Part shown: piece by piece, positions 3,256 through 61,814 of the stretch
Layout: each line of letters opens with the position of its first letter
How positions within the stretch are numbered: the first letter of the stretch is position 1
DNA from: Actinobacillus sp.
GTDB lineage: Bacteria; Pseudomonadota; Gammaproteobacteria; Enterobacterales; Pasteurellaceae
Assembly (NCBI GenBank): GCA_020026115.1
Contig: JAHHQY010000003.1
Span: 4,919 to 68,918, forward strand
Direction of reading: 5' to 3'
Length of the DNA stretch: 64,000 nucleotides
Translations under genes and position numbers: made by a program
Notes under the pieces: generated by a model
The model's database searches: none
The model's input: the letters and a program-made list of their open reading frames with translations, nothing else
What the model was told of the DNA's origin: nothing

Positions 3256-3297
3256 CTCGCGCCGAAAAATAGCCAAAGTTTTTTTTTTCGGCGCGAG
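3256..3297. repeat. YTCGCRCCGAAAA motif, inverted pair (hairpin)
   Basis: CTCGCGCCGAAAAA-tagccaaag-T10CGGCGCGAG, between the hpt 3' end and the 5' end of the MscS-family gene. Confidence 0.9.
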
Positions 3298-3326
3298 AGG
3301 AAAACTAAAAAAGGAAAAAAGGGAAA

Positions 3327-3866
3327 TTATTCCTCAATGATGACTTTAGCGATGTAATCTAAATTACGATAATATTGAGCATAATCAATACCATAGCCAA
3401 CAACAAACTCATCAGGAATAGCAAAACCTACCCATTCCACCGGCACTTCAACTTCACGGCGAGCCGGTTTATCGAGTAAAGTACAAATATGCAAAGATGC
3501 AGGATCGCGTAAATTTAAAATTTCGCGAATTTTTTGTAGCGTGTAGCCTGTGTCGATAATATCTTCCACAATCAAAACGTGACGACCACGAATATCGCCG
3601 TCTAAATCTTTTTTGATGCGCACATCATGGCTCGATTCCATTGCATCGCCATAGCTAGAAGCGGTCATAAAATCCACTTCTAAAGGCAGGTTAATAGCAC
3701 GGACTAAATCCGCCATAAACATAAAAGAGCCACGCAGTAAACCAATAACAACTAAGTCTTTAGCGTTTTGTTGTTGATAAAAAGTGGTAATTTGTTCACC
3801 AAGTTCTTGAATACGTTGGTGGACATCTTGTTGGGAGATTAAGGTTGCGAGATGATGTTTTTTCAT
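3327..3866 (-). CDS. hpt: hypoxanthine phosphoribosyltransferase
   Basis: 179 aa with the PRPP-binding loop [14 protein letters not shown] and overall Hpt-like sequence. Confidence 0.9.
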
Positions 3867-3901
3867 GGTTTGCCTCTAAGATTAGAAAACGCCGTATTCT
3901 A

Positions 3902-3942
3902 ACAAAAAAAAAGCCGAAGTTTAATTTAACTTCGGCTTTTTA
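3902..3942 (-). terminator. terminator downstream of pmbA
   Basis: 13-bp perfect palindrome AAGCCGAAGTTAA/TTAACTTCGGCTT flanked by A9 (a T9 tail on the minus strand). Confidence 0.75.
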
Positions 3943-4107
3943 CTTAATGAATTTTACTATTTTTACTTTAAACTTCTCTACTTAACTTACTTGGAGTATT
4001 GAAAACGCAGAATTTAGCATTTAAAACATTCTAAACAAGAAGTGATTGCATATTAAAGGCTATAAATCTTTTTGTCAATAGGAATTATTATCATTTTAAT
4101 TAAAAAA

Positions 4108-5463
4108 TTAATTCCCAGAAACCTTCATAGATTCAATCAGTAAAGAACCCGTTTGGATATTAGAACGCGTTTCCACATCATCACCAATCGCAACAATTTT
4201 TTGTAGCATTTCAGGTAAACTGCCCGCAATGGTAATTTCAGCCACAGGGAATTGGATTTCGCCATTTTCTACCCAAAAACCGCTGGCACCGCGCGAATAA
4301 TCGCCCGTCACTAAATTAACGCCTTGCCCCATTAAATCTGTGACCAATAAACCGCGTCCCATTTGTTTTAAAAGCGCATTTAAACCGCCTTTTAAGTTGG
4401 CTTTGACTTGCCAATTATGGATACCGCCGGCATGTCCTGTGGTTTGCATGCCCATTTTTTTCGCGCTGTAATTGGTCAGCAAGTAGGTTTGTAATTCCCC
4501 TTGTTCAACAATAAAACGCGTTTGGGTGCGCACACCTTCACTATCAAAAGGTGAAGAGGCTAAGCCTTCTAATAAATGCGGGCGTTCTTGAATTTCAAAC
4601 CAACGCGGTAACACTTGTTTGCCAAGGCTATCTAATAAAAAGCTCGCTTTGCGATATAAACTGCCCCCGCTAATCGCTGAAGCAAAATGCCCAATAATGC
4701 CCGTGGCAACGTCATTTAAGAAAACCACAGGCACAGTTTGCGATTGAATTTTTTGCGGATTTAAATGGGATAAAGTTTTGCGTGCGCAATTTTCCCCAAG
4801 CCATTTTGTTGAGTTTAAATCTGAAAAACGGCGCGAAAGGGTATATTCATAATCCTGTTCTAAGGCGTCATTTTCCTGGGCAATCATCGCACAAGAAAGG
4901 GAATAGCGACTTGAAAGATAGCTTTGTAGCATACCTTCGCTATTACCATAAACGCGAACACCAGAATGAGCATTAAAACTTGCCCCATTACTATTTACGA
5001 TACGACGATCAAAATCTAAGGCGAACTTTTCCGCTTCTTGCGTTAATTGAATCGCCGTATCAACATCAATATCCGCTTCATGGTAAAGCTGTAAATCAGG
5101 CGCATCAAAGGCCATTAACGCTTTATCCGCAAGCCCAGCACAAGGGTCAGGCGAGGTGTATTTCGCAATGGCGATAGCAGAATCGACGGTTTTTTTAATG
5201 GCTTCAGGGCTTAAATCTGAGGTTGAGGCATTGCCTTTTTGTTGCCCTAAATAAACGGAAATACCTAAAGCGCCATCGTTATTAAATTCAATATTTTCAA
5301 CTTCTTGTAAGCGTGAAGAAACGCAAAGTCCACTGACTTTTGTAACGGAAACTTCAGCACTTGCACCTTGTTGTTGAGCTTGTTCAAGCGCCAAACTTAC
5401 CGCTTCGCGTAAAAGGCTTTCTTGTTGTTTGAGAATTTTGCTTGGATTTTCTTGCTGTTGCAT
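4108..5463 (-). CDS. pmbA: metalloprotease PmbA (TldE)
   Basis: 451 aa with full-length similarity to the PmbA/TldD family. It is divergent from yjgA, as in enterics. Confidence 0.9.
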
Positions 5464-5570
5464 GGGAGGTCCTTTCTAAAAAATTTGCTGTATTCTAGCT
5501 TATTTTCGATAACCCAGCTAATTCTGTGATAGAATGCGCCGTTTTTATGATTAGAACTTAAGAGGTGAGT

Positions 5571-59364: not shown

Positions 59365-59383
59365 AAAGGAAAAGGAAATTAAA

Positions 59384-61027
59384 ATGACAGCAAAAGATGT
59401 AAAATTTGGAAATGATGCACGCGTAAAAATGCTTGCAGGTGTCAATGTATTAGCTGATGCAGTAAAAGTTACCTTAGGCCCTAAAGGTCGTAATGTGGTG
59501 TTAGATAAAGCTTATGGCGCACCAACTATCACCAAAGATGGGGTATCTGTGGCTCGTGAAATTGAATTAGAAGATAAATTTGAAAATATGGGCGCTCAAA
59601 TGGTGAAAGAAGTGGCCTCTAAAGCAAATGATGCAGCAGGCGACGGCACCACAACAGCGACAGTTTTAGCACAAGCTATCGTTAATGAAGGCTTAAAAGC
59701 CGTTGCAGCAGGTATGAATCCAATGGATTTAAAACGTGGTATTGATAAAGCCGTCAGCGCAGTAGTTGCGGAATTAAAAGCACTATCAAAACCATGCGAA
59801 ACCTCAAAAGAAATTGAACAAGTGGGAACAATTTCTGCAAATTCAGATCGTGTTGTTGGTGAATTGATTGCCAAAGCGATGGAAAAAGTGGGCAAAGAAG
59901 GCGTAATTACTGTTGAAGATGGAACAGGCCTAGAAGATGAATTAGATGTGGTTGAAGGTATGCAATTTGACCGCGGTTATTTATCACCATATTTCATCAA
60001 TAAACCAGAAAATGGCACGGTTGAATTTGAAAATCCGTTTATTTTATTAGCGGATAAAAAAGTAAGTAATATTCGTGAATTATTACCAGTATTAGAAGGC
60101 GTAGCAAAAGCGGGCAAACCACTTTTAATTATTGCCGAAGATATTGAAGGTGAAGCTTTAGCAACGCTTGTAGTGAATACAATGCGTGGTATCGTGAAAG
60201 TTTCAGCGGTGAAAGCCCCAGGTTTTGGTGACCGCCGTAAAGCTATGCTACAAGATATTGCTATTTTAACTGCCGGTACCGTAATTTCAGAAGAAATCGG
60301 TATGGAATTAGAAAAAGCAACGTTAGAAGATTTAGGCCAAGCAAAACGTGTAGTGATTACGAAAGATGACACAACAATTATTGATGGTCTAGGTGAAGAA
60401 GCGCAAATTAAAGCGCGTGTTGCTCAAATTAAAGCGCAATTAGAAGAAACAAGCTCTGAATACGATAAAGAGAAATTGCAAGAACGTATGGCTAAATTAG
60501 CTGGCGGTGTTGCAGTTATTAAAGTTGGCGCAGCAACAGAAGTTGAAATGAAAGAGAAAAAAGATCGTGTAGAAGATGCTTTACACGCAACACGTGCTGC
60601 GGTAGAAGAAGGTATCGTTGCAGGTGGTGGGGTTGCTTTAATTCGTGCCGCAAGCAAAGTTAGCACAACTTTACAAGGCGATAACGAAGAACAAAACGTA
60701 GGGATTAAATTAGCTTTACGTGCAATGGAAGCACCACTTCGTCAAATTGTGACTAACGCCGGCGAAGAAGCCTCTGTTGTGGCAAATGCAGTAAAAGCAG
60801 GTGCCGCAAACTTTGGTTATAATGCAGGTAATGACCAATATGGCGATATGATTGAAATGGGGATTTTAGACCCAACTAAAGTGACTCGTAGTGCCTTACA
60901 ATTTGCCGCATCTATTGCAGGTTTAATGATTACCACCGAATGTATGGTAACAGAATTACCAAAAACCGATGCGCCAGATATGAGTGCTGGCATGGGCGGT
61001 ATGGGAGGCATGGGCGGAATGATGTAA
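59384..61027 (+). CDS. groEL: chaperonin GroEL
   Basis: 547 aa, ..[12 protein letters not shown].., with a C-terminal GGM repeat tail. Confidence 0.98.
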
Positions 61028-61057
61028 TTCTCAACGCCTTGCTTTAAGCAATCCAAG

Positions 61058-61092
61058 AAGTGCGGTTATTTTTAAAATAATCGCACTTTTTT
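61058..61092 (+). terminator. groEL terminator containing a perfect Hin-type USS core
   Basis: AAGTGCGGTTATTTT-t-AAAATAATCGCACTT followed by T-rich sequence. The 5' arm carries AAGTGCGGT at 61058-61066. Confidence 0.8.
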
Positions 61093-61164
61093 GTTGCGCG
61101 CTATCTTGGCATTGCTATAATGTTCGGCTAATTTTTCTACGTATTACTTCAGTTAAGGTTTGTT

Positions 61165-61797
61165 ATGGATTTTTCAATTTACCTACAATATTTCGTGAGT
61201 TTAATCGCCTTGGTTAACCCCATTGGCGTTATTCCTATTTTTTATTCAATGACACAAGATTTCCCTAAAGAAGAGCAAGATCGCATGGTGTTCATTACCT
61301 GTTTTTCTTTAGTTACTATGTTGTTAGTCAGCTTTTTCTTTGGCAACTTCATCTTAAATTCATTTAGTATTTCCATTGATTCATTCCGTATCGCAGGCGG
61401 TATCGTGGTGGCAATTATTGCCTTAACCATGATTAACGGGAAAATCGGTGAAAATAAAATGAATAAAGAAGAAAAAGATGTTAATGTCGAAAGCTATACA
61501 AATCTTGCAATCGTACCTTTAGCGATGCCTTTAATGGCAGGCCCTGGTGCATTGAGTGCCTCTATTGTGTTTGGTATTAACTCTCATACTTTTGAAAGCT
61601 ATGCCTATTCTTCACTAACCATTATTTTATTTGGTTTAGGTTGTTACTTATTATTACGCTATTCAAAACCATTGATGAAACGCTTAGGTCGTACAGGCGT
61701 TAACGTGGTAACGCGTATTATGGGTTTAATCCTATTATCTCTTGGTGTTGAAATGATCGTGACCGCTTTACGCAACTTCGGCATCATCGCCCAATAA
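61165..61797 (+). CDS. MarC family (UPF0056) membrane protein
   Basis: 210-aa polytopic protein with N-terminal ..ALVNPIG.IPIF.. and ..PLAMPLMAGPGA.. motifs typical of MarC/YhgN. Confidence 0.8.
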   Translation: MDFSIYLQYFVSLIALVNPIGVIPIFYSMTQDFPKEEQDRMVFITCFSLVTMLLVSFFFGNFILNSFSISIDSFRIAGGIVVAIIALTMINGKIGENKMNKEEKDVNVESYTNLAIVPLAMPLMAGPGALSASIVFGINSHTFESYAYSSLTIILFGLGCYLLLRYSKPLMKRLGRTGVNVVTRIMGLILLSLGVEMIVTALRNFGIIAQ

Positions 61798-61800
61798 TCA

Positions 61801-61814
61801 CTCGCACCGAAAAA
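61801..61814 (+). repeat. motif, single copy at the core/lic-island boundary
   Basis: CTCGCACCGAAAAA, 3 nt after the stop of the marC-family gene. No further copy occurs in the remaining 2.2 kb. Confidence 0.85.

Follow-up and report, generated by a model that had tools for sequence, protein, structure and literature searches.

We analysed a window of 64,000 nucleotides from an assembly of Actinobacillus sp. (GCA_020026115.1, contig JAHHQY010000003.1, positions 4,919 to 68,918), throughout which a short motif, CTCGCRCCGAAAA, recurs in spacers and genes alike. We consider it probable, from the distribution and make-up of its copies, that this motif is a DNA uptake-enhancing sequence of a Pasteurellaceae lineage related to Actinobacillus delphinicola, and it stands as a well-supported candidate for a third, unrelated type of uptake sequence in the family. 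Haemophilus and Neisseria recognise their own DNA through such sequences. Since the 1980s, the specificity of the Pasteurellaceae has been presented as a pair of similar 9-mers with GCGG in common, known as the Hin and Apl types of the uptake signal sequence (USS), the receptor being still unproven. Our reading builds on the density and sharpness of the motif, its occurrence in both orientations, its even spacing, its enrichment in spacers together with terminator pairs, its frame-restricted and recent copies within genes, its lineage specificity, the absence of canonical USS and the presence of uptake machinery. To our knowledge, such a combination of features has so far been found only for DNA uptake-enhancing sequences.

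Abundance and placement of the motif

All window counts refer to these 64 kb, with which the Logan contigs of the same organism are identical and which they lengthen by less than 1 kb; samples from relatives are of 11-45 kb each. The core TCGCRCCGAAA has 32 exact copies, 20 on the plus and 12 on the minus strand, against 0.03-0.24 expected under Markov models of order 0-4, the higher orders being inflated by the motif itself, and against a mean of 0.06 (maximum 1) in dinucleotide-preserving shuffles. For the 13-mer YTCGCRCCGAAAA, 26 copies compare with 0.03 expected. The density, about 500 per Mb or roughly one copy per 2 kb, exceeds the Markov expectation more than 130-fold, and the motif family is the top over-represented word family of the window at k = 8-12. 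Permitting two mismatches brings in just eight extra sites, with 3.8 expected by chance; thus, the motif is sharp, and perfect copies far exceed degenerate ones. In the logo of the 32 copies, C-TCGC-R-CCG-AAAA is followed by three further A/T positions and, in 23 of 32, by a G at +15, so that the full motif reads CTCGCRCCGAAAA(www)G. At R, 15 copies have A and 17 have G. An A4-7 tract lies directly 3' of CCG, 32 copies being too few to separate a second tract from partner arms and T runs; beyond the G at +15 the flanks are A/T-rich and otherwise unconserved, and nothing past about 17 nt is shared among copies. With pairs collapsed, the 25 motif loci are spaced more evenly than at random, the coefficient of variation of the gaps being 0.56 versus 0.96 under random placement (P = 0.001) and 0.84 under an intergenic-aware null (P = 0.014). 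Judged by GC skew, the plus strand is the leading one, and most genes lie on it.

Coding sequence makes up 90% of the window, and the neighbours of the motif are unrelated housekeeping genes from one end to the other. Twenty-five copies are intergenic, spread over 19 of the 41 spacers, and seven are genic. Eight head-to-head pairs account for 16 arms, namely 14 of the 32 exact copies and two degenerate ones; six pairs have both arms perfect and two have one degenerate arm. All eight have predicted folds of -17 to -30 kcal/mol, in which the G+C clamp forms the base, the A/T tract faces the loop and T runs lie beyond the stem, and their loops (4-18 nt in the predicted folds) have no common sequence. 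The two arms agree at R in four pairs and differ in four; because R does not covary, each arm is kept as a motif and not as a pairing partner.

The first pair, at 3256..3297, has its arms at 3256-3268 on the plus and 3285-3297 on the minus strand (3257/3286) and a 16-nt loop, and it forms a predicted hairpin of -23 to -25 kcal/mol in the spacer between a mscS-like gene and hpt. The others lie at 6106..6141 (arms 6107/6130), flanked by the convergent yjgA and rnhA; 17093..17129 (17094/17118), 3' of pgm, with A at R in one arm and G in the other; 23272..23315 (23273/23304), 3' of deoD and 5' of gyrA, a spacer that in relatives holds a different palindrome; 34788..34822 (34788/34811), 3' of paeA, the plus arm having one mismatch (CTCGCGCTGAAAA); 37230..37264 (37231/37253), between the convergent maeB and an ABC exporter gene, with arms unlike at R; 54321..54363 (54322/54351), 3' of manA, the minus arm having two mismatches; and 57292..57315 (57293/57304), where the arms abut, leaving a 4-nt AUUU loop in the predicted fold, in the spacer between a kdsA-like and an aspA/fumC-like gene and beside the independent terminator 57248-57272.

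A further 11 intergenic copies stand alone, with no partner even at two mismatches. Four of these singles stand by separate complete terminators: 26545..26557 (+), in the spacer between a sirB-like gene and comE, adjoins the terminator 26511-26541, and its GCGCC pairs with a GGCGC downstream; 33353..33365 (+), 3' of rsmJ, stands by the terminator 33381-33399; 40235..40247 (-) is joined to the T-tail of the terminator 40212-40231; and 42285..42297 (+) precedes by 33 nt the start of a bidirectional independent terminator, 42329-42350. With the terminator beside the last pair, complete terminators adjoin copies at five places. Three further singles lie in divergent promoter regions (at 15219, 45801 and 58960), namely 15218..15230 (+) between trmB and pgm, which is no position for a terminator, 45800..45812 (+) between focA and prfB, and 58959..58971 (+). 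The remaining singles are 7791..7803 (-), 3' of two tRNA-Asp genes, 11499..11511 (+), 7 nt past a methyltransferase gene, 49718..49730 (+), 3' of aroG, and 61801..61813 (+), 4 nt past a gene end. Given these unpaired copies, some by independent terminators or divergent promoters, termination alone does not explain the motif.

Within genes there are seven copies, whereas 1000 synonymous-codon shuffles that kept proteins and codon usage gave 0.27 on average and 3 at most; the seven occupy a single frame in each orientation. All three sense copies read CTC GCG CCG AAA (Leu-Ala-Pro-Lys, LAPK): 10080..10092 (+) in an ABC ATPase gene, 11559..11571 (-) in yggU, where a relative has QSPK, and 40454..40466 (-) in mobA. 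All four antisense copies read TTC GGY GCG A (Phe-Gly-Ala, FGA): 12032..12044 (+) in yggT, as TTC GGC GCG A, where relatives have FF(A/S/G)A in other codons; 17481..17493 (-) in tpiA, where relatives have FGV; 29567..29579 (+) in comA, within a 5-residue insertion that relatives lack; and 45231..45243 (+) in focA, where FFGA (TTC GGC GCG) stands in place of the FVGA (GTT GGT GCT/GCA) of relatives. CTC is rare in the window, serving 2.9% of Leu, and CCG serves 15% of Pro; all three LAPK peptides in window proteins are nevertheless written in motif codons (chance 0.0022 each), and TTCGGYGCG encodes 7 of the 16 FGA peptides, where 0.78 would be expected (p = 0.049 each; binomial P = 5e-6). In each of the five genic copies with orthologues the motif arose in the window lineage, through amino-acid replacements (V->F, V->A, QS->LA), synonymous changes or the 5-residue insertion. 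Orthologue comparison thus shows the genic copies to be derived in this lineage, at tolerant positions. A study of USS in proteomes reportedly described the same pattern for USS.

These results bear out much of a preliminary description of the same DNA. It had put the core copies at about 31 (20 and 11), at coordinates that proved essentially correct, and had estimated far fewer than one by chance; the eight inverted pairs that it described all fold, the copies that it placed beside independent terminators were found there, with 26511-26541 as an addition, and the copies that it reported within ordinary genes number seven.

Competence genes and canonical uptake sequences

Canonical USS are at background level in the window. 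The Hin-type AAGTGCGGT occurs three times and the Apl-type ACAAGCGGT once, against about 0.3-1.4 expected each, which amounts to about 60 per Mb for both combined, and neither GCGG nor CCGC appears on either strand in the logo of the 32 copies. The claim of the preliminary description that the motif is of neither type therefore holds, as does its report of a competence operon in the window. In the literature, GCGG is the inner core that defines both known USS types (PMC12616744), and A. delphinicola, with 41 Hin and Apl copies per Mb, is among the lowest of 150 genomes (supplementary table, PMC12616744); the roughly 500 per Mb of the window fall within the range published for Hin-USS genomes (PMC12616744). 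The DNA uptake sequence (DUS) of Neisseria, GCCGTCTGAA, has no copies in the window, and the motif lacks its CTG. The H. parasuis string ACCGAACTC shares ACCGAA with the motif; it is a different sequence, with no copies in the window.

A second over-represented word of the window, CTAAAGCGG, has nine copies (9869, 16081, 20328, 24184, 28030, 32443, 48827, 51155 and 51173) against 0.5-0.8 expected. Eight are genic, against 1.4 in synonymous shuffles, and the canonical AAGCGG/GCGG core is part of the word. What remains here could be an Apl-like USS that is fading, or a mere codon-pair effect, since other words, such as TTAGCCTTAG, score similarly.

The competence operon, comA-comB-comC-comE (the last encoding the PilQ secretin), occupies 26566..29637 on the minus strand as four intact open reading frames (ORFs) of 275, 173, 184 and 387 aa. 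It is divergent from ponA, has the same four-gene layout in relatives, and presumably encodes uptake machinery. The comE secretin, at 387 aa, is short, as it is in relatives, where room for comD is likewise missing. A CRP-like 21-mer, TTTACGATGCGGATCGCAAAA, at 29781..29801 extends over the ponA start, some 150 nt upstream of comA. Conservation of this site spans six lineages (the relatives with the site being represented by the sampled loci L013, L017, L004, L005 and L002, the last in the version TGTGA-N6-TCGCA), and on the comA strand its left half, TGCGA, bears the CRP-S signature. The comA-ponA spacer contains no perfect CRP-S (TGCGA-N6-TCGCA), the one-mismatch site that overlaps the ponA start being the only candidate; this site probably serves the divergent comA operon as its CRP/Sxy site and would regulate it. 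The TCGCA of the motif was itself considered as a CRP-S half-site and rejected, since half of the copies carry TCGCG, the arms point outward and their spacing varies.

Host lineage and relatives

Protein comparisons place the source in an uncultured, genus-level Pasteurellaceae lineage near A. delphinicola. An exact look-up among about 15 billion proteins found seven window proteins, all seven as singleton clusters at 90% identity, so that the collection holds no closer relative; an eighth was absent from it. The seven occur in a single NCBI contig of 73,748 nt and otherwise, for five of them, only in Logan contigs of the run SRR14298102, whose sequence agrees with the window at 100% identity. 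PonA, GyrA and PflB all find their best hits within the Pasteurellaceae. For PonA, identity is 73% with the nearest relative and 63-65% with named Pasteurellaceae, and a search of genome contigs with it returned one locus, at 70% identity, in the metagenome-assembled genome (MAG) MAG017. GyrA shares 86% identity with MAGs and 80-83% with named genera, PflB shares 93% with its A. delphinicola counterpart, and the gene order gyrA-com-ponA is the same as in relatives. The run SRR14298102 contains at least three Pasteurellaceae lineages, namely the window organism, MAG017 (GCA_020026075.1) and GCA_020026055.1 (L016, L018, L001), the GyrA of the latter two being 83-85% identical to that of the window. 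Two of these lineages carry differing dense motifs, and none was detectable in 22 kb of the third.

The motif is specific to the window lineage among the relatives sampled; the preliminary description had proposed a check in related genomes. Window segments that match relatives' regions hold 10-11 copies. No copy occurs in the orthologous regions of A. delphinicola NCTC (L019), GCA_029257485.1 (L003), GCA_020026155.1 (L021), GCA_020026055.1 (L017, L018), MAG017 (L002, L015, L016) and two Logan lineages (L004, L005), and those of GCA_029256965.1 (L013, L020) have none save for one isolated genic copy. Across JGI metagenomes the inverted-pair pattern gave five matches, each with one pair and at 56-65% G+C, as by chance, and a pattern scan of IMG/VR for the motif returned none. 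Neither A. delphinicola (L019, about 22 kb) nor two close MAGs (L013, L020 and L021, about 66 kb) show enrichment of Hin or Apl sequences or any other dense motif, in line with the published 41 per Mb for A. delphinicola; k-mer scans of single 11-15-kb loci are underpowered, the informative samples being those of 22-36 kb.

MAG017 has a motif of its own, AAAWATTCCGRCCT, whose 10-mer ATTCCGRCCT occurs 14 times in 36 kb (0.4-0.5 per kb) against 0.07-0.09 expected, as singles and inverted pairs, mostly between genes; examples are L015 13819-13844, 18869-18906 and 10488 (within gyrA) and L002 2176-2213 and 6648-6685. The gyrA copy differs from three other lineages by an Ala-to-Thr replacement and a synonymous CCT/CCA-to-CCG change. 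Neither the window nor any other relative sampled contains ATTCCGRCCT. The two motifs are alike in coming from the same run and clade, in being equally dense, in combining singles with inverted pairs, in having a genic copy made by amino-acid replacement, and in their layout, an A/T tract followed by a CCG/CGG triplet, a transition-degenerate position and then G+C; yet they give no convincing alignment, and in MAG017 the A/T part of the pair loops is partly conserved.

In the A. delphinicola group, a palindromic terminator, ACGCCCCGATTTTCG...CGAAAATCGGGGCGT, is also conserved in sequence, both between species and among unrelated loci. It occupies the deoD-gyrA and rsmJ-paeA spacers, which in the window are taken by its own motif. 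Copies lie at L013 9825-9864 and 19781-19818 and L003 8401-8438, and related versions at L017 9869-9905 and L004 5460, 8758 and 12577. Their density is low, about 0.13-0.2 per kb; in the A. delphinicola group they occur as pairs only, and the three in L004 are mostly unpaired. The terminator core, CGCCCCGA, matches the CGCRCCGA of the window at 7 of 8 positions.

The genes of the window are ordinary, unrelated housekeeping genes: hpt, pmbA, yjgA, rnhA, dnaQ, two tRNA-Asp genes, an iron ABC system, yggU/T, corA, trmB and pgm; then tpiA, gltS, nupC, deoD, gyrA, comABCE, ponA, rsmJ, paeA, maeB, mobA and dsbA; and finally pflB, focA, prfB, lysS, aroG, a mannose phosphotransferase system, manA, prfA and prmC. 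The programmed +1 frameshift site of prfB, CTTTGAC, is at 46003-46009, just 5' of the 320-aa RF2 ORF at 46067-47029. An Rfam match to AaHKsRNA54 (Aggregatibacter small RNA 54; 59.9 bits) at 13450-13557 on the minus strand, directly upstream of corA, probably represents a conserved 5' leader. Over the final 4 kb (60001-64000), with EamA transporter and nucleotidyl-transferase genes, G+C falls to 0.32, and no motif copy occurs after 61813; this may be an acquired surface-polysaccharide segment.

Candidate uptake function, alternatives and significance

Uptake bias, receptor and drive, as we infer them by analogy with the Hin and Apl USS and the Neisseria DUS, would work as follows. A surface receptor of the competence pilus would bind motif-bearing double-stranded DNA; for the Pasteurellaceae, the minor pilin ComN/PpdA is the predicted, unproven receptor. 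Bound fragments would be drawn through the ComE/PilQ secretin, which is encoded in the window, and would then recombine. Alleles with the motif would be taken up oftener, and new copies would thereby spread by molecular drive wherever tolerated, building up chiefly in spacers and, within genes, keeping to the two cheapest reading frames. Head-to-head copies, which bring together a G+C-rich clamp, an A/T tract and a flanking T run, would have been co-opted as bidirectional intrinsic terminators. The preliminary description had proposed an uptake sequence, and every sequence-level prediction of that proposal that could be tested has held: copies occur beyond hairpins, flanks and loops are unconserved, and the density is more than 100 times the expectation. 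The motif is still a candidate.

Several observations weigh against uptake. Both uptake and competence are read from the sequence alone, and a genome-wide count is an extrapolation from 64 kb. Unpaired copies are divided 13:5 between plus and minus strands (P = 0.10, not significant), where uptake predicts no bias. The non-coding 10% of the sequence holds 78% of the copies, a distribution more extreme than that of the Hin-USS, so that selection could act mainly on a role linked to termination or to 3' ends. The motif may also have grown out of the ancestral terminator stem, as suggested by the core alike at 7 of 8 positions and by the use of the same spacers in relatives. The com operon has no separate comD ORF and no room for one, and the comN receptor gene, rec2, comF, dprA and tfoX lie outside the 64-kb window.

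Among the alternatives, we think it unlikely that the motif is a genome-wide DNA-level signal not tied to uptake, be it a binding site for some abundant protein that recognises DNA or RNA, or the outcome of biased repair or conversion, in the manner of HIP1. Any drive at the DNA level would also yield over-representation, genic copies at synonymous sites and lineage specificity, and the plus-strand excess among intergenic singles (9:2), with nine of 11 co-directional with most genes, may hint at a role at the RNA level. Yet genic copies run both ways (three sense, four antisense), which disfavours an RNA signal; canonical USS are missing precisely where the motif is abundant; pair spacing varies, unlike that of protein-binding palindromes; and no such system is known in the Pasteurellaceae, of which uptake sequences are a hallmark. 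Still less credible, to the point of being very improbable, is that the motif is the mere conserved stem of an intrinsic terminator family, with the singles as decayed or half terminators. At gene ends, the 16 arms do pair up as eight strong hairpins flanked by T runs, and relatives have conserved palindromic terminators in the equivalent spacers; however, the 11 partnerless singles, the five places where a complete terminator already adjoins a copy, the three singles in divergent promoter regions, the seven genic copies arisen by codon changes and the failure of the arms to covary at R all speak against it. A part of a transposase-spread mobile element, like the repetitive extragenic palindromic (REP) sequences or miniature inverted-repeat transposable elements (MITEs), would likewise be mostly extragenic, often palindromic and present in many copies, and can be set aside almost entirely, since the unconserved flanks and loops (at most about 17 nt being shared, with loops differing in length and sequence) exclude such a unit, the genic copies are in frame and stem from point changes, and the 13-mer is no palindrome.

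As a candidate uptake sequence, the motif shares with the Hin and Apl USS the bacterial family, a density of about 500 per Mb, both orientations, genic copies in preferred frames, spacer copies, inverted pairs serving as terminators, an A/T tract by a G+C-rich core of about 9 nt, and a com operon with a CRP-type site. Unlike them, it lacks the GCGG inner core; with the Hin-USS only GTGCG/CGCAC can be aligned, which leaves the A/T tract on the opposite side. It is a continuous 13-mer with one adjacent A tract, whereas theirs is a 9-mer with two phased AT tracts, and it is far more concentrated in spacers and known here purely as sequence. The DUS of Neisseriaceae and their dialects are also continuous motifs of 10-13 nt, mostly intergenic, with inverted pairs that act as terminators, and the dialects are lineage-specific and track phylogeny, as the motif is lineage-specific; yet they belong to another bacterial family, the motif lacks their CTG core and the sequences are unrelated. 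In architecture, a continuous, mostly intergenic 13-mer with many terminator pairs, the motif resembles DUS more than USS. REPs and the related bacterial interspersed mosaic elements, as well as HIP1, are short and highly iterated genomic motifs too; REPs, however, are extragenic imperfect palindromes of conserved structure, HIP1 is an 8-nt palindrome of cyanobacteria, and neither is linked to competence.

In the literature searched by motif strings, by accessions and by A. delphinicola or Gallibacterium together with USS, the motif is nowhere described. Two studies that the Ambur group published in 2025 (one of them PMC12616744) recognise two USS types, Hin and Apl, in Pasteurellaceae, and one of the studies, a de novo scan of 177 complete genomes, found new dialects in Neisseriaceae only. 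The source of the window, being an uncultured MAG, falls outside these complete-genome sets. "USS-poor" genomes, among which are those of MAG017, A. delphinicola, Mergibacter and Gallibacterium, may merit de novo motif scans and not searches for Hin and Apl sequences alone.

A lineage with an unrelated motif would show that uptake specificity is fully rewritable within the Pasteurellaceae, and the other motif of the sister lineage MAG017 would strengthen that conclusion. Taken together, the two lineages would offer sharply contrasting receptor-motif pairs for testing the ComN/PpdA hypothesis, and the finding of different motifs within one run bears on uptake sequences as barriers to gene flow between species. 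More tentatively, the USS-poor A. delphinicola clade may have kept its uptake specificity while evolving new, mutually unrelated motifs, at least two lineages of one run using different ones (CTCGCRCCGAAAA and AAAWATTCCGRCCT), a possibility that we entertain without favouring it. If true, the GCGG-core USS would here have been replaced wholesale for the first time, CTCGCRCCGAAAA and AAAWATTCCGRCCT would act as barriers to DNA exchange between lineages, and the clade would provide a natural experiment for identifying the receptor, for example through comparison of ComN among lineages.

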